59,808 nt of DNA from an uncultured Candidatus Saccharibacteria bacterium (GTDB lineage: Bacteria; Patescibacteriota; Minisyncoccia; Phycocordibacterales; PALSA-1337). Both the position numbers and the translations under genes were made by a program. The notes under the pieces are model-generated. The model was not told where the DNA came from. It made no database searches and saw only the letters and a list, made by a program, of their open reading frames with translations. Positions within the stretch are counted from its first letter, which is position 1. The number at the start of each line of letters is the position of its first letter. The stretch covers positions 50,025 to 109,832 of the forward strand of contig CAZNYP010000001.1 in NCBI GenBank assembly GCA_964577365.1. Direction: 5' to 3'. Below, piece by piece: positions 28,019-38,011 of the stretch.

Positions 28019-28316
28019 CCGAATGGTTGTGTCGATCAGGCGACGGCCCGACCGAACATAAAGGTCTTCCGAGGATAGACCTTGTTGTACACGGTGATAC
28101 CGTGTGACCGGGGAAACACGAGCTCCTTTCTACTGAGGAGCATCCGACGCAGGCGCCGGAGAATCCCACCATGCCGGTGATTCCTTCGGCGGTACTCGAC
28201 GATCTGATAAACCAGGTCTCGATTCTCGAAGAACGGACGTCTTGGGCGCATTGCGCCGCCAGTTGGGAACGGCTCATATTCAAAAATACTCTATCTCTAC
28301 ACTACGATCTTGTCAA
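28019..28316 (-). other. G+C-rich promoter-to-terminator unit (~290 nt); coding frame ambiguous (71-aa ORF 28036-28251 or 92-aa ORF from ATG 28277), possibly a structured ncRNA
   Basis: TTGACA (28311-28316)-N17-TAGAGT (28288-28293). Both open minus-strand frames are compositionally odd, one Arg-rich and one Ser/Cys-rich. At least five local hairpins are present. Confidence 0.4.
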
Positions 28317-29364
28317 TCACCGCCCCTCCCACACATCTATCTCCATCATAAAACACAATAGACTGTCCCGGTGCGACGGTTTGGTTTTCAGAAAAAGTGA
28401 CCCTGTTCCCTTTTAACTCACACGAGACAAGTGGCTGACGATACCGCACACGCGCCATATAGGTACCATCCTTTTTTACATTTGAATCAGCGATGACGAT
28501 CTCCTTTCCATTTGCTTTTTGTTCTTCGAACGAGACAACGATGTCATTTCCCTTTTTTTCTTTTATAAAATATGGAGGATCATTTGGAGTTTTCTTTGTC
28601 ACCGTAAATCCATGTCGCTGCCCGATCGTGAGATATTCGATGCCGTCATGCGTACCGATCACTTCATCATCGCGTAGTACATTTCCAGGCGTAGGAGTAA
28701 TATAGTGTGAAAGAAAATCCTTTATATCGATTTTGCCAATGAAACATAGGCCCTGACTATCTTTTTTCTCGGCCACATAAAGCTTTGCCTTGCGAGCGAT
28801 CTCACGCACCTCTGATTTTAGAAGGTGGCCAATAGGAAACAGTATTTTAGAAAAATCGGAAATAGTCCAGAGGAAATATGTCTGGTCTTTGTTGTGATCT
28901 TTTGCCTTCCACATGTGTCCATCCTTGCTCTGTGCATAGTGTCCAGTCGCGACAAAGTCAGCACCGTGTTCGAGTGCCCATGTGTAAAATCCTCCGTACT
29001 TTACGTATTTGTTGCACATGACATCAGGGTTTGGAGTGCGACCCTTTTTGTATTCTGCGATCATGTAGTCAACGACCTCTTGTTTGTATTCTTTTTCGAG
29101 GTCGAGGGTGATAAAAGGGATGCCGAGCTGTGCAGCTACGCGCATCGCATCGAGACGATCCTCCTTCCAGTTGCATACGATCCAGTCGGGCTGCCACACT
29201 TTTATAAATACACCCGTCACGTCGTACCCGGCTTTTTTGAGCAGATATGCAGAGACAGAGCTGTCCACTCCGCCTGACATCCCCACATATACTTTACCCT
29301 CTGAGGTATTTTGAAATATTGACTTTATGTTCATCAAATGTCTTAGCGTAGTAGAATATACCAT
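28297..29364 (-). CDS. mnmA: tRNA-specific 2-thiouridylase
   Basis: VYVGMSGGVDSSVSAYLL PP-loop, ...CNKYVKYG..., and the catalytic Cys context GLCFIG. The start may be ATG 29334. Confidence 0.93.
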   Translation of the reverse strand: MVYSTTLRHLMNIKSIFQNTSEGKVYVGMSGGVDSSVSAYLLKKAGYDVTGVFIKVWQPDWIVCNWKEDRLDAMRVAAQLGIPFITLDLEKEYKQEVVDYMIAEYKKGRTPNPDVMCNKYVKYGGFYTWALEHGADFVATGHYAQSKDGHMWKAKDHNKDQTYFLWTISDFSKILFPIGHLLKSEVREIARKAKLYVAEKKDSQGLCFIGKIDIKDFLSHYITPTPGNVLRDDEVIGTHDGIEYLTIGQRHGFTVTKKTPNDPPYFIKEKKGNDIVVSFEEQKANGKEIVIADSNVKKDGTYMARVRYRQPLVSCELKGNRVTFSENQTVAPGQSIVFYDGDRCVGGAVIDKIVV

Positions 29365-30112
29365 TCTTTCCAGTGATATAGTAGAGGTACTCGTTTTTGG
29401 TCGGCTCCTGGGCTGCCTTTATCGATTCGAGTCCAGGATTCGTGATGGGTAGAGCCGGGAAACCTTTTGTCTTGTAGGTCTCCATCGCCACATCTACCTG
29501 GAGGAGCATGCCGATACTGAGTCGTCGCCACAGGATGTCCGCAATCATTTTTCGATCTGTAGCGCTTTTTCCCTCCTCCTCGACGATCGCTGCCATCTTT
29601 ATCATGTCTGGAGAAACCTTGCCCACCTTTCGCTCAAATGTACCTTTTAAAAGTGACGCTACCTTGTCCTCATCAAAGTTGATCGGAAAAAGATACGTGT
29701 CAGGAAAGAGATACCCCTGGTCTTTATTATATTTTTTCAAGAACTGTGGTGCATCAAAATTCTCGAGCTTGCCCCAGATAAATCCGGCGATCTGCTCATT
29801 GTTTGATCCCTCAGGTATGGTCACACGGACATACGGTACTTTGCCTTCACCAGTTTTGAGACGAGAGACGATACCAAATAGTCCTACTTTTTCATCGAGG
29901 AAATAACTGTTTGATTTTATATTTCGTGCAAAGAGTTTGAAAAGTGGAACCGATCTGATGACACCTTTTTGTTTTAGAAGGTTCCCGATTTCCCCAACGC
30001 TTTTATTTTTCTCTACCACCACAATGGTTTCAACAGGAAAATCCCGTGGTGGAAGAATGGCCACCGTAAAAGATACGAGCACAGCGATGATGGGGACTAA
30101 TATAAATTTCAT
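29294..30112 (-). CDS. mltG: endolytic murein transglycosylase MltG (YceG-like)
   Basis: N-terminal TM helix, ...GYLFPDTYLFP..., and ...ASIVEEE-type (here AAIVEEEGK) YceG motifs. Confidence 0.85.
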   Translation of the reverse strand: MKFILVPIIAVLVSFTVAILPPRDFPVETIVVVEKNKSVGEIGNLLKQKGVIRSVPLFKLFARNIKSNSYFLDEKVGLFGIVSRLKTGEGKVPYVRVTIPEGSNNEQIAGFIWGKLENFDAPQFLKKYNKDQGYLFPDTYLFPINFDEDKVASLLKGTFERKVGKVSPDMIKMAAIVEEEGKSATDRKMIADILWRRLSIGMLLQVDVAMETYKTKGFPALPITNPGLESIKAAQEPTKNEYLYYITGKNGIFYYAKTFDEHKVNISKYLRG

Positions 30113-31350
30113 TATAGTGGAAGATTTGCTGGAGCTTCGCTTTTCTTTGACAGTATTCGGTTGAACGCTGGAGCCGCAGCCACCTGACCTGGGAAGTGAT
30201 AAATCGTTGCGAGCTCTTCGCTACTCATATGAATTGACTCTCCTTTTATTGGTCCGTAGAAAAACGAGCGACGCTTGTAGGCTTCGAGTGCCTCTTCCAT
30301 ATCACCATTCTGGCGTCTATTTTGAAAATCCTGCCATGGGTAGCTGAAACGAGGACTGTAAAACTTGCTATTTGGTTTGAAGCCGTTGAGTGTCTCTGAT
30401 GCATACTGCTTCCAGCTTCCAGTCATCCCCGAAATATTTGCTGGGTCATAAAATTCTTTTTTTCCAAAATAGATGATACGGATACCTACCTCGAACTGAA
30501 GCTTTGTGAGATTGCGCTCGATCGCAGATATGGTCTCGGTCTCACCTTTTGTCAGGACCACTTTTGCTCCATCCTCTCCTCCAGCGACGAATTTTGTTTT
30601 TGGATCACGCTTCATGAGATCATTGATGATTTCCTTTGCTGATTCTTTGTATGGATCATAATTTGTCTTGAAAAGTGTTCCTGGTTTTACCTGATCACCT
30701 TTGTGTGCACGGACAATGATCTGGAACCACGCCTGCTGGTTTGCACCGATAGAGCCCAAAAATTCGATAACCGGAGCGATCGGATCGACTTTGAATTCTT
30801 CTTTTGGATCTTTGTCGAGACCATAGTCGACATATGTTTTGATCGGATAGGCATCGTCTTTTGTAAACTGCAGGTTTGCCGCCCACATTTTCATCGTCTT
30901 TGGATCAAATGCAACAGGCAATGAATAGTCGGGTACCTCATGTACCTCGATACCGGGAAACTGAGCATAGAGTGATGATTCGATGAACTTTTGCATTCCC
31001 TTTCGAGTCCATATATAAAAGCCCACCTTGCCCTCGATAGAGGCCATTTCGAGTGAAAACCAAGGGCGAGTCTTTCCCAACCAATATTTATCATACCAGG
31101 TGCCTTCACCACCCGTCTGATGTAGTGTCGTCAAAAAGAGCTCCATGGCTACAGGAGATTTCATCAGTTCTTTTGGTAGTTTTATTTGGAGAAGGCGAAC
31201 TTCTTGTTTAAAGAAAAATTGAGCTCGGACATATGTCACCCAGATCTCCCAAAACAAAATGACGAGGATAAACGGCATCCAGATCGGGGCCAGTTTTGCC
31301 ATATAGAAAACGACAGTAGGAAGTGCAGTGGTGATAAATGCATCAAACAT
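30112..31350 (-). CDS. hypothetical membrane protein (412 aa)
   Basis: Two N-terminal TM helices, then a soluble domain (LLQIKLPKEL.KSPVAMELF...FSLEMASIEGKVGFYIW...YAQFPGIEVHEVPDY...EELATIYHFPG). TATAAT lies 6 nt upstream of the ATG. I cannot name a family with confidence. Confidence 0.6.
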   Translation of the reverse strand: MFDAFITTALPTVVFYMAKLAPIWMPFILVILFWEIWVTYVRAQFFFKQEVRLLQIKLPKELMKSPVAMELFLTTLHQTGGEGTWYDKYWLGKTRPWFSLEMASIEGKVGFYIWTRKGMQKFIESSLYAQFPGIEVHEVPDYSLPVAFDPKTMKMWAANLQFTKDDAYPIKTYVDYGLDKDPKEEFKVDPIAPVIEFLGSIGANQQAWFQIIVRAHKGDQVKPGTLFKTNYDPYKESAKEIINDLMKRDPKTKFVAGGEDGAKVVLTKGETETISAIERNLTKLQFEVGIRIIYFGKKEFYDPANISGMTGSWKQYASETLNGFKPNSKFYSPRFSYPWQDFQNRRQNGDMEEALEAYKRRSFFYGPIKGESIHMSSEELATIYHFPGQVAAAPAFNRILSKKSEAPANLPL

Positions 31351-31367
31351 GCATTTATTATACCCTA

Positions 31368-32399
31368 TTATTCTGCGACAGAATACTTGCCCTCAGAGTC
31401 TTTTTTGAAATACTTCTGGTTCTGTAGATTTACCATGATCGTATTTTCCTTTACATATCGCTCTTTGAGTACTTTTTCGATAATCTGCTCTTTTGTGAGT
31501 GGACCGTTTTTGATGACGATCTCGCGGATCACATCGCGCACTACACCGCTTGCATATCCCCATTCCTTGAGTGCATAGAGACCACGGCCAACGAGTACAA
31601 ATCGTGGATCCTTGATGAGCTCGTTGTGAGTTGTTGCAACGTGTGCTTTCTTTTTGAAAATCTTTTCGATATTTTTTGCTACCTCACGGAAGTGGATCGG
31701 AGAACCGTGCTTGCGGATGACGAGGAATGCATAGTCACGCATACCCTTTGTCTTGATATTTGAAGAAGTAGATACTCCCCATTCACCGAGTGCGTTTTTA
31801 CCAATCTTTTTTGAGATGGTGAGCCATCGCTTGAGGATTTCCTGATTTTTGTATTTTTCTGACACGTCTTCGAGGTGCTCGAGGAAAGACTGAATCATCT
31901 CTGATTCCTGGAGGAGATCATTGTCGCCGAGGTTTTCGTAGAGCTTGTGGAGTGAATCCTCTACTTTTTGTGCGAGCTCGTCACTCACATGCCATCGGTG
32001 TGCAAAATGATCGTCTTCTTTTCGGCGTTTGAATGATTCGTGGAGGGTGAGGAGAAAGTTGATGTGGTTCTGGATAGATACGTCTTTTGACATATGACTG
32101 AGGAAGTCTTCTTCGAGGACGATGCCACCGAGCGCGTGGAGCTGCTCTTCGATATGAGCAAAGGTCGCTTTTTCAGTCTTGTATCCTTCTGACTTTCGAA
32201 TATTTACGAGCGCATAGTTTTCGATCTGTCGAACACGCTCACGAGTGATACCATAGATCTTTCCGATCGAGTCGAGGGTCATACGAGTCGTATTTTTACC
32301 AAGTCCGTATCGCTGAATGATCACATCACGCGCACGTTCAGGAAGCACCGCGAGGAGCTTCTTGACTGTCTGTTTTGGTTTAAAATCTATTGGTGCCAT
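31368..32399 (-). CDS. DNA-binding protein with N-terminal sigma70 region-4-like HTH and C-terminal HARE-HTH-like domain
   Basis: The N-terminus RARDVIIQRYGLG...TLDSIGKIYGITRERVRQIENYAL resembles region 4.2. The C-terminus RDYAFLVIRKHGSPIHFREVAKNI...DPRFVLVGRGLYALKEWGY is HARE-HTH-like. No region 2 is present. Confidence 0.68.
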   Translation of the reverse strand: MAPIDFKPKQTVKKLLAVLPERARDVIIQRYGLGKNTTRMTLDSIGKIYGITRERVRQIENYALVNIRKSEGYKTEKATFAHIEEQLHALGGIVLEEDFLSHMSKDVSIQNHINFLLTLHESFKRRKEDDHFAHRWHVSDELAQKVEDSLHKLYENLGDNDLLQESEMIQSFLEHLEDVSEKYKNQEILKRWLTISKKIGKNALGEWGVSTSSNIKTKGMRDYAFLVIRKHGSPIHFREVAKNIEKIFKKKAHVATTHNELIKDPRFVLVGRGLYALKEWGYASGVVRDVIREIVIKNGPLTKEQIIEKVLKERYVKENTIMVNLQNQKYFKKDSEGKYSVAE

Positions 32400-32446
32400 A
32401 TGTGTTTTATAGGTGTTATAGTTGTATCATATATCGTGTATAGGTG

Positions 32447-35167
32447 TCAAGTAACCACAATATTGATGAGTTTATCCGGGATAAAAATGACCTTTTTCGC
32501 CTGATCTACCTTTACAAAGTCCAATGCTTTTTTCTCTAACTCCTCCCTGCTCTCGCCACCACTCACTTCGATCACTCCCTTTGTCTTTCCATTGAGCTGA
32601 ATAACTATTTTCTTTACATCAGCCTGGATTTTCCCTTCGTCTGCGGTGGGCCACTCTGATATATGGATACTCTCCTTTTTACCGATTTTTGTCCAGATCT
32701 CGTCTGCGATATGTGGTGCAAATGGAGCTACGAGCTGCACAAACTGTTCATACACCGATTTTGGAATGACCATTTCTTTTTCAAATTCATTGAGCGCGAT
32801 CATTAGGCTGCTCACTGCTGTGTTGAACCGCATGAGTGAAATGTCTTCGGTCACTTTTTTTATCGTCTTATGCAGCACAGAATCAATGTGTCGTGATGGT
32901 GTATCGAGACCGACTTTTTCTTTGAGCTTCCAGACACGCTCGATAAATCGGCGTGAACCGATGATGCTCGATGTATCCCATTTTATCTGCTGATCAAATG
33001 GACCGAGGAACATTTCGTATACTCGTAGTGTATCAGCACCGTATTTTGCAACGATATCATCTGGGTTCACTACATTTCCGTATCGCTTTGACATCTTGCG
33101 ACCGTCCTCTGCCATGATGAGACCTACATGCTGTAGTTTTTTAAATGGTTCGAGTGTCGAGACTGCTCCGATATCGTATAGGAATTTGTGCCAAAAACGG
33201 GCATAGATGAGGTGTCGGGTCGCATGTTCGGCTCCACCTACGTAGAGGTCTACCTGATTCCAGTATTTTTCTTTTTCCTTGTCTACCAGTGCCTTTTTAT
33301 TGTCCGGATCCATATAGCGGAGGTAGTACCACGAAGAACCTGCCCACTGGGGCATGGTATTGCTCTCGCGGGTATATTTTTCTTTACCGATTTTGACGTT
33401 CATCCACTTTTTTATACCTGCAAGCGGAGATTCACCGGTACCAGTCGGCTCGTATGATTTTACTTTTGGCAGTTCTACCGGAAGTTCTTTTTCTGAAACA
33501 GGAATTACCCCTTTTTCTCCATGCAGCACAGGGATAGGCTCTCCCCAATATCGCTGTCGTGAAAACACCCAGTCACGGAGCTTGTATTTTGTGATCCATT
33601 TTCCATTTACATGCTCTGCGATCTTCTTTTTGACTGTCTCCGAATTTTTCCCAGAAAATTCTCCAGAATTGTACAGCTCGCCACTGCCAGTATATGCATG
33701 CTCTTTTTTCAAAAACTTGCTAAACACCCATGGAAGCTCTGCGCCAGCTACTTCTTTTTCGAGGTTGTCACGATGAACCCAGACATTGTCATGGAGCTTT
33801 GTATCTTCAACACTTTTCTCTGTCTTTATCTCATCTCTTAATTTAAATAAAAGTGTACGAACGGTCGCAAATCGATTTTCATTTTTGTGCTGCGCAAAAT
33901 ACTCTGCATGCACCACTCCAGCTACCTCACCGACATAGTCAATATTGCTGTATCCCGTCTCTTCGGATATTTCACGCTGGGCGGATACAACTGGGTTTTC
34001 ACCCTCATCTACACCACCAGTTACGAGAAAAGTTCGCCCACCATAGTATTCTGGTTTCCATTTCACACATAAAAATAGATTCGGATCGGTTGGATGCTCA
34101 ACGATGCAGCGTACGTTATTTCTTTTTACTGTCTTCTTTCCTTTTACAGGTAGATTTTCCTTATCGATAAAATGAGGGATGATCACTTCTACACTCTTTA
34201 TATTGTGCTTTTTTGCAAATTCAAAGTCCCGTTCATCGTGTGCAGGCACGCCCATCACTGCCCCAGTTCCATAATCACTGAGAACGTAGTCAGCGACAAA
34301 TACAGGGATCTCCTCACCATTTGCCGGATTGATTGCGACTAGTTTTTTCTTTTTTGCGAGTGCATGTGACTCGGAAATAGCCAAATACGTCACACCATAT
34401 ATCGTGTCAGGGCGTGTGGTAAATATTTTTATTTTCTCTTTTGATCCTTTTACTGCAAAATCGATCTCAGCTCCCTCACTCTTTCCGATCCAGTTTTTCT
34501 GGCTTTCGACGATAGAGGACGGCCAATCGACATAGTCGAGGTCAGAGAGAAGTCGCTCTGCATAATCAGTGATACGGAGCACCCACTGGCGCATCGGCTT
34601 TTTTTCTACGAGTGTCCCACAGCGTTCACATTTTCCATCCTCGACGTCCTCGTTTGCGAGACCCGTTTTATCGAACGGACACCAGTTGATCGGTTCGTAT
34701 GATTCGTACGCCAACCCTTTTTCCAAAAGCTTGAGGAAAATCCACTGCGTCCACTTGTAGTATTTCGGATCTGTCGTGTTGATCTCTCGATCCCAGTCAT
34801 AGTCAAATCCGAGGATCTCGAGTTGCTTTTTATAGCGCGCTACATTTTTCTTTACCGCATCCACTGGGTTCGTCTTTGTCTTTATCGCATAGTTTTCAGC
34901 CGGCAATCCAAATGCATCAAACCCCATCGGGTGAAGCACATTGAACCCTTGCATGCGCTTCATGCGCGATACGACGTCTGTCGCGATATAGCCTTTTGGA
35001 TGACCGACGTGTAGTCCTTCTCCAGAGGGATACGGGAACATGTCGAGAATATAAAATTTGGGAGCATTAGATGCGTCTTTTGTACGATATATATTTTTCT
35101 TGGCCCATTCCTTTTGCCATTTTTGTTCGATATATGAGTGATCGTACGCCCTTGGGTCAGGTTTCAT
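32447..35167 (-). CDS. leuS: leucine--tRNA ligase carrying an inserted Nudix domain
   Basis: HVGHPKGY (HIGH-type), KMSKRYGN (KMSKS), and editing motifs TTRPDT and GTGAVMGVPAHDERD. The start is set at ATG 35167, with TGgTATTTT 6 nt upstream. An insert of about 150 aa contains a perfect Nudix box. Confidence 0.95.
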   Translation of the reverse strand: MKPDPRAYDHSYIEQKWQKEWAKKNIYRTKDASNAPKFYILDMFPYPSGEGLHVGHPKGYIATDVVSRMKRMQGFNVLHPMGFDAFGLPAENYAIKTKTNPVDAVKKNVARYKKQLEILGFDYDWDREINTTDPKYYKWTQWIFLKLLEKGLAYESYEPINWCPFDKTGLANEDVEDGKCERCGTLVEKKPMRQWVLRITDYAERLLSDLDYVDWPSSIVESQKNWIGKSEGAEIDFAVKGSKEKIKIFTTRPDTIYGVTYLAISESHALAKKKKLVAINPANGEEIPVFVADYVLSDYGTGAVMGVPAHDERDFEFAKKHNIKSVEVIIPHFIDKENLPVKGKKTVKRNNVRCIVEHPTDPNLFLCVKWKPEYYGGRTFLVTGGVDEGENPVVSAQREISEETGYSNIDYVGEVAGVVHAEYFAQHKNENRFATVRTLLFKLRDEIKTEKSVEDTKLHDNVWVHRDNLEKEVAGAELPWVFSKFLKKEHAYTGSGELYNSGEFSGKNSETVKKKIAEHVNGKWITKYKLRDWVFSRQRYWGEPIPVLHGEKGVIPVSEKELPVELPKVKSYEPTGTGESPLAGIKKWMNVKIGKEKYTRESNTMPQWAGSSWYYLRYMDPDNKKALVDKEKEKYWNQVDLYVGGAEHATRHLIYARFWHKFLYDIGAVSTLEPFKKLQHVGLIMAEDGRKMSKRYGNVVNPDDIVAKYGADTLRVYEMFLGPFDQQIKWDTSSIIGSRRFIERVWKLKEKVGLDTPSRHIDSVLHKTIKKVTEDISLMRFNTAVSSLMIALNEFEKEMVIPKSVYEQFVQLVAPFAPHIADEIWTKIGKKESIHISEWPTADEGKIQADVKKIVIQLNGKTKGVIEVSGGESREELEKKALDFVKVDQAKKVIFIPDKLINIVVT

Positions 35168-35197
35168 AATATTAAAATACCACAAATCGAAAATTAT

Positions 35198-35241
35198 GTA
35201 AAAGAAAACCCACCGGCCACGCGTTGCAGTGTGGGGGTGGG
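35198..35241 (-). terminator. imperfect GC-rich hairpin with U-tract ending the small-membrane-protein operon just upstream of leuS
   Basis: cccacc...ggtggg outer stem with internal pairing. On the minus strand it is followed by ttttctttt. Confidence 0.5.
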
Positions 35242-35418
35242 TCGATTTCTTCGGAGGGGGTATCCAGTCTTGGCCCTTCGTCCGGTATACCGTGGTGATG
35301 ACAACACCGCTGCCCGCAGGAAACGGTGGTGTCGCCTCGGTTATGGCGAACGTGAGGATGAGGTGTAGGATCCCCCAGATAAGCAGGAGCTTGATCATGG
35401 GATGAAGAACGTGCTGCT

Positions 35419-35562
35419 CTACCAGGGCGAGTAGGAAATGGAGTGGAGTGCGCCCATGATCCAATCGCCGATGATGTAGATGCCGGATGCAATCGCGAGG
35501 ATGATGATCCCCGCCAACACGATGCTTGCCGGCTTTACGGTGGTGTTAGCTCTGTGGCTCAT
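35419..35562 (-). CDS. small membrane protein (47 aa, 1 TM)
   Basis: Hand translation gives MSHRANTTVKPASIVLAGIIILAIASGIYIIGDWIMGALHSISYSPW. It lies 14 nt after the previous stop. Confidence 0.45.
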   Translation of the reverse strand: MSHRANTTVKPASIVLAGIIILAIASGIYIIGDWIMGALHSISYSPW

Positions 35563-35576
35563 ACGGTTGAGGTTGT

Positions 35577-35714
35577 TTACTTGATGTACTTGACCCAGGT
35601 TGGAAGTGGTTTGTGCAAAAAGTCATAGGATGCCATCATCATGGCTCCACAAAGAGTCAGGAGGCACATGACTGCAAGGAACAGCATCCCTGCTGTGCTT
35701 GTGTTAAATTTCAT
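35577..35714 (-). CDS. small membrane protein (45 aa, 1 TM)
   Basis: MKFNTSTAGMLFLAVMCLLTLCGAMMMASYDFLHKPLPTWVKYIK, from an internal ATG of the 76-aa track ORF. Confidence 0.45.
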   Translation of the reverse strand: MKFNTSTAGMLFLAVMCLLTLCGAMMMASYDFLHKPLPTWVKYIK

Positions 35715-35727
35715 GCCGATGTATACG

Positions 35728-36000
35728 TTACCACATATCATTATGTGTGTAAATAGCAAACCCGCCAACAATGGCGGGCGCGTGCACAGGGTAGCATGCG
35801 AGTGCAACCCAGTAGAGGATGACTAGAACCATCCCGAAAAGTGCGGCGTACAGGCCGGACTTGATGACCCAGTGATCCCTCTCATACCCATCGAGGCGAG
35901 GAAAGGTCGAGAGTACTGCGCCGAAGAGGAGGAGAACTCCGCCCGTAATCCCGACATACGGGACCTGGAGGAGTGTGATGATGAGCTGAAAGAGTTTCAT
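35728..36000 (-). CDS. small membrane protein (90 aa, ~3 TM)
   Basis: MKLFQLIITLLQVPYVGITGGVLLLFGAVL... The start codon overlaps the upstream stop as ATGA. Confidence 0.6.
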   Translation of the reverse strand: MKLFQLIITLLQVPYVGITGGVLLLFGAVLSTFPRLDGYERDHWVIKSGLYAALFGMVLVILYWVALACYPVHAPAIVGGFAIYTHNDMW

Positions 36001-36290
36001 GCTTCCCACCTCACTCCCCTCATCGCAAGGCCGGCAGCGATGGTACCGCAGACGAATGCGAGCAGTACAGCAGACATGCCCCGATGGTTCAATGCACCAT
36101 CTTCTGCGACGGCAAAGGTGACGGCTGCTGTGATCACGAAGCCGACAGTGAGCGCAGTGAGCACCCTGAGTGTGTTTGGGTTCCGCGTGATACTTTCGAG
36201 CGGACCGAAGTGGTCCCAAAACAGGAAGAAAAATAGTGCGATCAGCTGAGAACCGAGAACAATGATGAGATGAAACGTAGTGATGCTCAT
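35997..36290 (-). CDS. small membrane protein (97 aa, ~3 TM)
   Basis: MSITTFHLIIVLGSQLIALFFFLFWDHF... The start overlaps the upstream stop as ATGA. Confidence 0.6.
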   Translation of the reverse strand: MSITTFHLIIVLGSQLIALFFFLFWDHFGPLESITRNPNTLRVLTALTVGFVITAAVTFAVAEDGALNHRGMSAVLLAFVCGTIAAGLAMRGVRWEA

Positions 36291-36487
36291 ACGATTTTCT
36301 TTTTGATGTAGTTCACACCGTGACCGAGCCAAAAGCAGGCCACGACGACGGCGAGGAAGAGACAGACGGGCACACTCACGAGTGGCCGTATAGAGCTCCT
36401 CCACCACTCTTCTTCTGGGTCAGAGAACCAGAGAATGCAGAGAAAGTAGAAAGGCAAAAGCCCCACCAAGAGTTTTAGAAGAGCCAT
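36287..36487 (-). CDS. small membrane protein (66 aa, 2 TM)
   Basis: MALLKLLVGLLPFYFLCILWFSDPEEEWW...VPVCLFLAVVVACFWLG... A possible promoter TTGCTC-N17-TATGTT lies 9 nt upstream. Confidence 0.55.
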   Translation of the reverse strand: MALLKLLVGLLPFYFLCILWFSDPEEEWWRSSIRPLVSVPVCLFLAVVVACFWLGHGVNYIKKKIV

Positions 36488-36510
36488 ATACCCATAAACA
36501 TACACCCGAC

Positions 36511-36981
36511 TCAGGCTGCGAGCAAGTCTATGATTTCAAAATGCTTCTTCTCCACCGGCATCACCGATAGTCGCTGCCCGCGCTGCGCAACTAGCATCCC
36601 CTGCAATTGTTTATTTTTCTTTATATTTTCGAGTGAAACTGGGTTTGTAAACTTTTTAACAAATTCGAGATCGACACAGACCCACAGTGGATCTTTTCCT
36701 TCTTTCTGATATTTCAGCGCTTTCGGATCGTAGTGCTCATTTTTTGGATCAAGTGCTGACTCATCGATATGCGGAGCGCTCACTACTTTGGCGATCCCAT
36801 ATACACCCGTCGGATCTGACATCGAGTGATAGAAAAGGACAAGGTCACCGATCTTCATCCCTTCTTTCATAAAATTGCGTGCTTGAAAATTGCGAATACC
36901 CTCCCAGGCAGTTCGCTTATCAGCTTTGAGATCATCGATCGAGTAGCAGTTTCCTTCGGATTTTACGAGCCAATAGTTCAT
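36511..36981 (-). CDS. EVE (PUA-like, DUF55) domain protein
   Basis: MNYWLVKSEGNCYSIDDL......W.GIRNFQARNFM..MKIGDLVLFYHS......GVYGIAKVV is the typical EVE pattern. Confidence 0.85.
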   Translation of the reverse strand: MNYWLVKSEGNCYSIDDLKADKRTAWEGIRNFQARNFMKEGMKIGDLVLFYHSMSDPTGVYGIAKVVSAPHIDESALDPKNEHYDPKALKYQKEGKDPLWVCVDLEFVKKFTNPVSLENIKKNKQLQGMLVAQRGQRLSVMPVEKKHFEIIDLLAA

Positions 36982-36982
36982 A

Positions 36983-38011
36983 TTACACCTTAAACTCCAT
37001 CACATCCCCATCCTTTACCACATACTCTTTCCCCTCTGTTCTCCAATTCCCATTTTTCAAAAGATCTTCCCAAAAAATGACATCTGCTTTAATAAATTTA
37101 TCTTTAAAATCATTGTGAATCGCAGTTCCCGCCATAGGAGCTGTCCATCCTTTTCGAATAGTCCACGCTCGAGTTTCTTTTTCTCCAGTGGTGAAATAGG
37201 TGATGAGTCCGAGGAGCTCGTATCCTGCTTTTATCAAATTGTCGATCCCTCCATCTCCCTCTCGCATTGCTTTTTTATCTTCATCAGAAAAGTCCTTCAT
37301 GTCATGCTCGGTCGCAGCATCTACTGCTACCCATTTTTTATCCTTTAGGTATTCGAGCAGATCTGCAGGCACTGTAGTGTCCCCTTTTTTATTTAATACA
37401 TACAAAACCGGTTTTGAGGTGAGGAGGTGGAGAGACTTGAGAAATGGTGCTTCAAACTCTGTAGCTTCTACTGTGTTCGCCAATTTGTTTTCAGCCAAAG
37501 CCGTCTTGATCCGCTCGAGGAGGCCTGCTTCGATGAGTGCTTCTTTTTTATTTGCCTTTATTTCTTTTTGTAAATTCCCTAGACGCTTGGTGACTGTTTC
37601 CTGATCAGCCAAAATGAGCTCCATGTTGATGATCTCGATATCAGTGATTGGGTCGATCTTTCCATCGACGTGGATGATGTTGTCATCTTGGAAAATACGA
37701 ACGACATGGGCGATCGCATCAGTCTCACGGATGTTGGTGAGGAATTTGTTTCCGAGACCTTCGCCTGATGATGCCCCTTTTACAAGTCCTGCAATGTCGA
37801 CGAACTCTACCGCTGCCGGCACGATCTTTTGAGTTTTAGAAAATTCAGCGAGTTTGTAGAGACGCTCGTCGGGTACTGCAACCACTCCGACAGACGGGTC
37901 GATCGTCGCAAACGGATAGTTCGCAATAAGCACACTCTTTTTGGTAAGAGCGGTGAAGAGGGTTGATTTTCCGACGTTTGGGAGACCGACAATACCGATG
38001 GATAGTGACAT
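36983..38011 (-). CDS. ychF: ribosome-binding ATPase YchF
   Basis: IGIVGLPNVGKSTLFTALT G1 motif and a C-terminal TGS-like ...GDVMEFKV. Confidence 0.93.
   Translation of the reverse strand: MSLSIGIVGLPNVGKSTLFTALTKKSVLIANYPFATIDPSVGVVAVPDERLYKLAEFSKTQKIVPAAVEFVDIAGLVKGASSGEGLGNKFLTNIRETDAIAHVVRIFQDDNIIHVDGKIDPITDIEIINMELILADQETVTKRLGNLQKEIKANKKEALIEAGLLERIKTALAENKLANTVEATEFEAPFLKSLHLLTSKPVLYVLNKKGDTTVPADLLEYLKDKKWVAVDAATEHDMKDFSDEDKKAMREGDGGIDNLIKAGYELLGLITYFTTGEKETRAWTIRKGWTAPMAGTAIHNDFKDKFIKADVIFWEDLLKNGNWRTEGKEYVVKDGDVMEFKV

Follow-up and report, generated by a model that had tools for sequence, protein, structure and literature searches.

Bacterial leucyl-tRNA synthetases (LeuRS), as known from Thermus thermophilus (1H3N/2BYT) and Escherichia coli (4AQ7), are the closest described counterparts of the protein analysed here, a LeuRS that carries a predicted Nudix hydrolase domain nested inside its CP1 editing domain. 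It is encoded by leuS, at positions 32447..35167 (minus strand) of a 59,808-nucleotide stretch of DNA (hereafter 'the window'; contig CAZNYP010000001.1 of assembly GCA_964577365.1, labelled as an uncultured Candidatus Saccharibacteria bacterium). With the described enzymes this LeuRS shares the HIGH, KMSKS and CP1 motifs, as well as the anticodon-binding and C-terminal domains. In comparison with the Thermus enzyme, it has a Nudix domain of 166 amino acids (aa) in the place of a loop of about 12 residues, and lacks both the segment equivalent to T. thermophilus residues 270-309 and the leucine-specific domain (an accessory, not universal element that precedes KMSKS in the E. coli and Thermus LeuRS).

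On the Nudix side, the module comes nearest, at weak similarity, to the asymmetric diadenosine tetraphosphate (Ap4A) hydrolases (Aquifex aq_158, 3I7U; lupin, 1F3Y; Caenorhabditis elegans, 1KTG; human NUDT2), with which it shares the fold, the Nudix box, an arginine aligned with that of the YRRNVG motif and an acidic charge. It differs from them by its low identity (19-22%), by invariant residues of its own (K-x2-N-R and W463) and by being nested in, or genetically linked to, aminoacyl-tRNA synthetases. The second point of reference is RppH/NudH (4S2X, 7SP3), in comparison with which the module is devoid of the basic RNA-binding surface (as judged by isoelectric point, pI) and of the C-terminal tail. 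RppH hydrolyses Ap4A and removes Np4 caps (PMC10148737, PMC7044304), while aminoacyl-tRNA synthetases are regarded as a main source, within the cell, of Ap4A and similar dinucleoside polyphosphates, with RppH and Aquifex aq_158 listed among the degraders (PMC10148737; PMC7705103); both RppH and ApaH take NpnN caps off RNA (PMC7044304).

A class I editing synthetase endowed with an additional enzyme domain has a precedent in the NCBIfam family ileS_w_GNAT (NF040702), in which isoleucyl-tRNA synthetase is joined to an N-acetyltransferase. Here, in contrast, the additional enzyme is a Nudix hydrolase, it is nested in CP1 rather than appended to an end, and in relatives it is multiplied and accompanied by HAD and serine-hydrolase inserts. 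No NCBIfam exception model for LeuRS plus Nudix matched the query in a scan of that collection. In full-text searches of the literature (8 million papers and preprints), no report of a Nudix domain within LeuRS or within any other synthetase came to light, nor any of such an arrangement in the Patescibacteria, in line with an earlier reading of the window made from its letters alone (the sequence-only reading), which knew of no such report. The named public records among the relatives are listed as 'leucine--tRNA ligase', as a variant of leucyl-tRNA synthetase or as 'class I tRNA ligase family protein'. LeuRS and Nudix are both well-known families; what appears to be undescribed is that the Nudix domain is nested, that it can be multiple or split off as a gene of its own, and that prolyl-tRNA synthetase (ProRS) offers a parallel, all of which we report below.

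A Nudix domain in the CP1 loop

The Nudix module spans aa 330-495 of LeuRS (33683..34180, minus strand) and occupies a surface loop of CP1. In the alignment to 1H3N, query residues 329-488 (about 160 residues) stand in for the 12-residue loop formed by T. thermophilus residues 362-373, so that the insertion falls after the catalytic HDxRD motif (with FEFAKKHNIKSVEVI, aa 315-329, directly before it) and ahead of the NSGxF strand. Its Nudix box, GGVDEGENPVVSAQREISEETGY (aa 384-406; 33950..34018, minus strand), proved on motif search to be the exact match to GX5EX7REUXEEXGU that the sequence-only reading had seen there. The Pfam model NUDIX (PF00293) covers aa 349-471 (39 bits against a cut-off of 21.1; E 1e-9), and this is the sole match to the Nudix box or family in the six frames of the 60-kb window. 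The guanine-cytosine (GC) content across the insert (0.40-0.43) is not anomalous.

The AlphaFold2 model of the module (built from a 46-sequence alignment, A1) reached a mean predicted local distance difference test score (pLDDT) of 95.2 and a predicted template-modelling score (pTM) of 0.88, and shows the strand and helix order of Nudix proteins; residues 63-75 of the 166 modelled form a helix onto which the REx2EE portion of the box falls. When compared by Foldseek with the PDB, the model gave 531 matches at E <= 0.001, and the best 50 of the 531 were all Nudix proteins, headed by 2AZW (the MutT/nudix protein of Enterococcus faecalis; E 3e-9), 3I7U (8e-8) and RppH (around 3e-7); the sequence identity to these solved Nudix structures was 13-22%. 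The sequence-only reading had allowed that a structure prediction might yield some other fold, and the fold obtained was that of a Nudix domain. The nesting itself is structurally plausible, since a good model was likewise obtained for the whole LeuRS (pLDDT 88.8, pTM 0.79), with values of about 90-95 across CP1 and the insert alike.

Taken together, Pfam, AlphaFold2, Foldseek and conservation (see below) confirm, at the level of sequence and model, what the sequence-only reading had proposed, namely that the insert is a canonical and catalytically competent-looking Nudix domain nested in the CP1 of LeuRS. That it is a real and conserved nested domain, and belongs to a synthetase-associated family, we regard as very nearly certain.

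The synthetase around the insert

The reading frame of leuS continues without interruption through the insert (as given by the open reading frame list of the window) and encodes 906 aa plus stop when started at the ATG at 35167. Longer calls exist, namely an open reading frame of 1005 aa that begins at the TTG at 35464 (its additional part being window positions 35168-35464) and a public record of 983 aa. The N-terminal residues that they add are hydrophobic, of low complexity and without counterpart in any LeuRS, while the start MKPDPRAY(DH) lines up with residue 4 of the Thermus enzyme (1H3N) and with the consensus beginning MKxYDHKK of the relatives. As far as sequence can tell, the ATG at 35167 is almost certainly the true start and the two longer calls are over-extended.

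The protein as a whole scores 942 bits (cut-off 548) with the NCBIfam model TIGR00396 (leuS_bact), aligns end to end with 1H3N (E 1e-183) and contains the Pfam domains tRNA-synt_1, tRNA-synt_1_2 and Anticodon_1. The two enzymes are collinear in four blocks (query residues 8-272, 277-328, 489-687 and 691-905, corresponding to T. thermophilus residues 4-269, 310-361, 374-580 and 637-876). Motif searches located every LeuRS motif quoted in the sequence-only reading at the place given for it: the HIGH-type signature HVGHP (aa 53-57; 34997..35011, minus strand), in which H53, G55 and H56 are invariant in a 71-sequence family alignment (A2); the KMSKS-type signature KMSKR (aa 691-695; 33083..33097, minus strand); NSGEFSG (aa 500-506, minus strand); and the editing motifs that follow.

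The CP1 editing domain (approximately aa 228-520; 33608..34486, minus strand), which holds the Nudix insert, is matched in two stretches by PF13603 (174 bits) and aligns with T. thermophilus residues 224-417. Its threonine-rich motif TTRPDT (aa 250-255; 34403..34420, minus strand) is nearly invariant at T250, T251, R252, P253 and D254 and invariant at T255, while in GTGAVMGVPAHDERD (aa 300-314; 34226..34270, minus strand) the residues G300, T301, G302, H310, D311, R313 and D314 are invariant (both in A2). The latter motif ends in HDERD (aa 310-314), which contributes the catalytic aspartate, and all the residues of hydrolytic editing are present in the query and invariant in the family. Both the synthetase and the editing activities are expected to be retained, since all their signature residues are in place.

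Two segments are missing. At aa 272/277 (34337..34354, minus strand) about 40 residues (T. thermophilus 270-309) have no counterpart in the query; the sequence-only reading had rightly seen a shortened editing domain and had overestimated the loss at about 50 residues. Among the aligned rows that we inspected, this deletion is confined to the query and its three nearest relatives, and the other relatives retain the segment, including a conserved TEIERTDxKKxKTG stretch. The leucine-specific domain (T. thermophilus residues ~581-636) is likewise absent, query residues 687/691 (33095-33109) joining what in T. thermophilus are residues 580 and 637, and this absence extends throughout A2. Hence, the description of the LeuRS as 'otherwise normal' stands with regard to its intact HIGH, KMSKS and editing motifs and does not extend to the leucine-specific domain, the absence of which leaves the membership of the LeuRS family unaffected.

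Conservation and distribution

Relatives were collected by a full-length search in 5.8 billion proteins (from which the 120 nearest LeuRS were examined), by an exhaustive HMMER search with a profile of the module against 1.84 billion cluster representatives (50% identity) and by a single-sequence scan of one genome per GTDB species. A word-index search for homologues of the isolated insert gave no match, the relatives being found by the full-length and the exhaustive profile searches. Almost all of the 120 nearest LeuRS, which derive from metagenome-assembled genomes (MAGs) of Taylorbacteria, Paceibacterota and the 'Patescibacteria group', contain PF00293, and about 110 of them have the strict Nudix-box pattern some 70 residues past HDxRD. 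The module profile recovered 179 representatives at E <= 1e-30 and 616 at E <= 1e-10; among the 149 best of these (counted without P0074, which the collection of relatives contained already), 116 have LeuRS flanks around the module.

The GTDB scan found the insert in 17 loci, which are a sample of its distribution and not a measure of it. They bear the labels Taylor-, Zambryski-, Nomura-, Lipton-, Kaiser-, Uhr- and Sungii-bacteria, Minisyncoccia and Paceibacterota, together with a few whose bin labels are doubtful (Saccharibacteria, Nanoarchaeota, Woesearchaeota and Bacillota). In three loci (L012, L014 and L016) a bacterial-type LeuRS with the Nudix insert occurs in MAGs labelled Nanoarchaeota, Woesearchaeota and Bacillota; these are either mis-binned patescibacterial contigs or cases of transfer between ultra-small bacteria and archaea. 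Judged from the relatives of its LeuRS, the host of the window would be a Paceibacteria-type bacterium of the candidate phyla radiation (CPR).

The strict box is kept in 172 of the 196 copies (88%) at the CP1 loop site. Residue by residue, in 164 module copies, E390 is conserved in 141, R398 in 139, E399 in all 164, E402 in 157 and E403 in 161; G405 is, like E399, E402 and E403, nearly invariant. Conservation reaches beyond the box to Arg349 (34121..34123, minus strand) in the first long strand of the module, present in 161 of the 164 copies and aligned with the YRRNVG arginine of 1F3Y, and to a family-specific motif, Y/F-F-x3-K-x2-N-R (YFAQHKNENR in the query, aa 423-432; 33872..33901, minus strand), in which positions 423 and 424 are aromatic in 153-154 copies and K428, N431 and R432 are found in 157, 159 and 155, respectively. 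E/D455 and W463 are also nearly invariant. The window copy combines a perfect box with every family-invariant residue, and the pattern as a whole indicates that the catalytic residues of the module are under selection.

A synthetase-associated Nudix family

The module of about 160 aa is present once, twice or three times per LeuRS (130-220 bits with site-specific hidden Markov models, HMMs). A second site, which lies after query aa 211 and just ahead of CP1, receives one copy or two in tandem. Degenerate boxes are found in 24 of the 196 copies at the CP1 site and in 27 of the 58 at the upstream site, where only 31 of 58 have the strict box; in a recurrent variant, E390 is replaced by Q and R398 is lost, while the glutamates of ExxEE are kept.

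Free-standing proteins of 160-200 aa make up about 25 of the best representatives. One such member has its gene just 3 nt upstream of a leuS without the insert (L001/L002), and another lies directly upstream of an insert-bearing leuS, at a locus with the synteny of the window. A third arrangement is the cluster TatD, Nudix, YfbR-like HD 5'-nucleotidase, second Nudix and leuS (L005). Elsewhere, members adjoin fpg and a SpoU methylase gene (L003/L004) or lie beside a MutT-like Nudix, an AAA_18 kinase-like gene and MazG (L088). The split arrangement (a separate Nudix gene by leuS) is not general, because no gene of the family lies within 3 kb of the insert-less LeuRS loci of the GTDB scan (L023-L085).

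The same family (136-186 bits) occurs between the anticodon-binding and the C-terminal domains of archaeal-type ProRS, a class II synthetase structurally unrelated to LeuRS. The ProRS that carry it make up a small clade of five clusters (P0243 and P0271-P0274; locus L088:3720-5744), whose insert-less neighbours are labelled Nanoarchaeota or Woesearchaeota (DPANN), and in four of the five copies the first half of the Nudix box is degenerate. A 247-aa protein encoded 1.3 kb from proS (L087:5001-5744) has a weak anticodon-binding-like N-terminus followed by the Nudix domain; in proteins of 232-251 aa (P0185, P0215 and P0245) a weak HGTP_anticodon-like N-terminus is joined to this Nudix, the HGTP_anticodon match being below the Pfam threshold (18.9 against 21 bits). 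In terms of sequence, the module constitutes a distinct Nudix family that is tied, physically or genetically, to aminoacyl-tRNA synthetases. Its recurrent fusion with two unrelated synthetases, and its operon-like adjacency when unfused, are the chief argument for a functional connection with the synthetases.

Eight relatives (P0018, P0019, P0044, P0064, P0074, P0077, P0083 and P0085) are LeuRS of 1078-1558 aa with further nested domains. Among the inserts in relatives are a YdeN-like serine hydrolase (PF06821; 1UXO at 3e-13) after the equivalent of query aa 240 or 549, and a HAD phosphatase (PF13419; without a sequence match in the PDB) after aa 596. An insert of about 130 aa after aa 549, for which Pfam gave no match, holds a G-x-K-T-V-E-T-R motif, which we take to be reminiscent of ASCH/PUA-like domains. 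With both Nudix sites included, small hydrolases occupy at least five insertion sites in this LeuRS lineage; the window LeuRS carries the CP1 Nudix alone among these inserts.

What the module may hydrolyse

We reason that the module is an active Mg-dependent hydrolase of nucleoside polyphosphates, of the type of NudH/RppH and the asymmetric Ap4A hydrolases, that clears dinucleoside polyphosphate (Ap(n)N) by-products, and we assign to this prediction a probability of roughly 0.4. LeuRS, like other adenylate-forming synthetases, would release dinucleoside polyphosphates (Ap4A, Ap3A, Ap4N) as side products, and the tethered Nudix domain would cleave them back to ATP/ADP and AMP, which would both recycle adenine nucleotides and keep Ap(n)N from piling up or from serving as RNA caps. 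Such recycling would be of consequence in a host whose phylum reportedly has a very small genome and little nucleotide biosynthesis.

Hydrolysis of Ap4A and similar by-products fits best because Ap4A hydrolases and RppH/NudH come nearest in the comparisons of structures and of families. The module profile, when run against PDB sequences, matched first the lupin Ap4A hydrolase 1F3Y (9e-10), followed by the AvrM14 decapping effectors (5e-9), the Aquifex Ap4A hydrolase 3I7U (1e-7) and Dcp2. In the Foldseek comparison, 3I7U had a target-normalised TM-score of 0.77-0.79 (at 22% identity), and complexes of E. coli RppH (RNA complexes and the Ap4A complex 7SP3 included) had TM-scores of 0.62-0.7. The nearest NCBIfam model was RppH (PRK00714) in 44 of 46 members. 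The assignment to the NudH/Ap4A type is suggested by four features: R349, aligned with the YRRNVG arginine of 1F3Y; a number of conserved basic residues, which point to a polyphosphate as substrate; the aromatic pair Y423/F424, at +17/+18 after the box (F or Y in 153-154 of the 164 copies); and the acidic nature of the module. An aromatic residue 16-18 positions past the box is said, after Dunn et al. in 1999, to be typical of ApnA hydrolases. The low pI (family median 5.7; query copy 6.4) speaks for a small-molecule enzyme rather than for an RNA binder. Of the other roles considered, hydrolysis of aminoacyl-adenylates is unlikely on chemical grounds (they are mixed anhydrides and not pyrophosphates), and a role in anti-phage defence is unsupported, PADLOC having returned a single marginal match (E 0.0098).

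Several observations weigh against Ap(n)N clearance. The module resembles Ap4A hydrolases and RppH weakly (about 25 bits against an equivalog cut-off of 116-118, which the module fails; 13-22% identity), and does so largely through the shared box; substrate specificity within the Nudix superfamily is notoriously hard to infer from sequence. LeuRS is not known to be an outstanding producer of Ap4A, and a diffusible product does not, at least not obviously, need a tethered hydrolase. Neither the presence of up to three copies per LeuRS nor the degeneration of about half of the extra ones is predicted by simple by-product clearing. Moreover, some neighbours of family members are house-cleaning or DNA-repair genes (Fpg, TatD, YfbR-like HD nucleotidase, MazG and MutT-like Nudix).

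The last point leads to the alternative that survives best, and that we hold possible while distinctly less probable than not, in which the module is a general house-cleaning or nucleotide-salvage pyrophosphatase (acting on oxidised or non-canonical NTPs, ADP-sugars or NAD) without a mechanistic link to aminoacylation. A tolerant loop of an essential and constitutively expressed protein would then guarantee its expression and, the genome being minimal, save regulatory DNA. The genomic company of the family members at L003/L004, L005 and L088 is consistent with this, as are the HAD and YdeN-like inserts at three further LeuRS sites (which make LeuRS resemble a general carrier of small-molecule hydrolases) and the fact that the window encodes no second Nudix. 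However, a random carrier does not predict that one specific Nudix family should be joined to two unrelated synthetases, that its unfused members should adjoin leuS translationally or sit near proS, that 116 of the 149 best representatives should be LeuRS, or that the module should be present up to three times in one of them.

An action on tRNA itself, with the synthetase serving as a binding platform for the removal of a 5'-end pyrophosphate or cap, or of a pyrophosphate at the 3'-CCA, seems unlikely to us. RppH is the nearest named family in those 44 of 46 members, the decapping enzymes Dcp2 and AvrM14 were also matched, RppH-RNA complexes are among the top structural matches, and RppH is known to remove NpnN caps (PMC7044304). 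The hosts of the module, too, bind tRNA: it sits in CP1 in LeuRS, just past the anticodon-binding domain in ProRS, and in the smaller proteins next to the weak HGTP_anticodon-like region. Yet that HGTP_anticodon match is sub-threshold, the scores are far under the RppH cut-offs, and free-standing members exist that have no RNA-binding partner. The module is also acidic, whereas the pI of E. coli RppH is around 10 (an approximate value, pI being a crude proxy for a basic RNA-binding surface). RNase P, moreover, normally yields tRNA with a 5'-monophosphate. RNA-end processing is possible and is not favoured by the acidic charge of the module.

A more specific form of the tRNA proposal, which we consider quite unlikely, envisages a synthetase-associated Nudix family of CPR bacteria, and possibly of DPANN archaea, that acts on tRNA and not on free nucleotides. 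It would strip a 5'-triphosphate, a nucleotide cap (Np4, NAD) or a toxin-added pyrophosphate at the 3'-CCA end received by CP1, and would thereby add to the proofreading domain of LeuRS a second station, of different chemistry, for tRNA quality control or repair, with the HAD and serine-hydrolase inserts of relatives performing further steps of the same repair line.

We find it highly doubtful that the module is mainly non-catalytic, that is, a structural, tRNA-contacting or nucleotide-sensing appendage in which hydrolysis is dispensable (for example one that makes up for the loss of the leucine-specific domain or for the shortening of CP1). The degenerate boxes (including the 4 of 5 in ProRS), the recurrent variant with E390Q and without R398, and the lack of the leucine-specific domain in the lineage could be read in this way. 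The window copy, with its perfect box and full set of family-invariant residues, argues otherwise, as do the 88% of intact copies at the CP1 site and the metal-binding E399, E402 and E403, which are kept in most variant copies and imply that the chemistry is retained.

Finally, the insert has practically no chance of being an assembly chimera, an intein or some other insertion that is not retained, for which its unusual length is the only point: the full-length protein is confidently modelled with a nested domain, the frame is continuous, the GC content is normal and the same insert recurs at the same site in at least 116 representatives and 17 GTDB genomes, that is, in many separate assemblies (the artefact that the sequence-only reading had kept in mind is effectively excluded), while the junctions SVEVI/IPHF and AYTGS/GELYNSGEF, checked by reading for the hallmarks of inteins (N-terminal Cys/Ser, C-terminal His-Asn followed by Cys/Ser/Thr, and Hint-domain blocks), show no splice residues and the Nudix fold fills the whole insert. 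The Nudix domain is translated as part of the mature LeuRS.

Genomic neighbourhood of leuS

The gene order around leuS (28297-38011) is conserved with the locus of a distant relative, in which a free-standing Nudix gene lies upstream of leuS within the series YchF ... leuS, sigma70_r4/HARE-HTH, DUF8128 and YceG. In the window, the YchF GTPase (36983-38011) and an EVE-domain protein (36511-36981) lie on one side of leuS; on the other are a protein with sigma70_r4 and HARE-HTH domains (31368-32399), a 412-aa protein without a Pfam match (30112-31350) that takes the position of the 413-aa DUF8128 gene of the relative, YceG (29294-30112) and MnmA (28297-29364).

The 1.3 kb directly upstream of leuS (35170-36510, minus strand) have a GC content of 0.51-0.58, as against about 0.43 in the surroundings, and contain four consecutive short and very hydrophobic open reading frames (MSITTFHLII..., MKLFQLIITLL..., MKFNTSTAGML... 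and MSHRANTTVKPAS...). A six-frame HMM search of this stretch found no Nudix remnant, and Rfam gave no credible match. In relatives, the position upstream of leuS is taken by DUF5671, by small open reading frames and sometimes by a free-standing Nudix gene.

Biological significance

Aminoacyl-tRNA synthetases are among the most conserved of enzymes, and new catalytic domains found in them have repeatedly exposed unexpected biology. Here, a second predicted active site, of different chemistry, lies inside the proofreading domain of an essential enzyme and is conserved across much of the Patescibacteria, in an arrangement mirrored by ProRS enzymes whose close relatives carry the labels of DPANN archaea. 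With hydrolases inserted at many of its sites (up to three Nudix copies, HAD and YdeN-like), this LeuRS lineage presents a striking case of domain nesting, one that is masked by the annotation 'leucine--tRNA ligase'. Whichever chemistry applies, the 166-aa module is a concrete object for biochemistry, easy to express and provided with a clear control in the E-to-Q mutant. An action on tRNA ends, if true, would represent a new kind of tRNA quality control. Should the module instead clear Ap4A, as we favour, a synthetase would for the first time be seen to be hard-wired to the breakdown of its own alarmone-like side products, which would give a handle on the nucleotide economy of organisms that are reported to be unable to make nucleotides.

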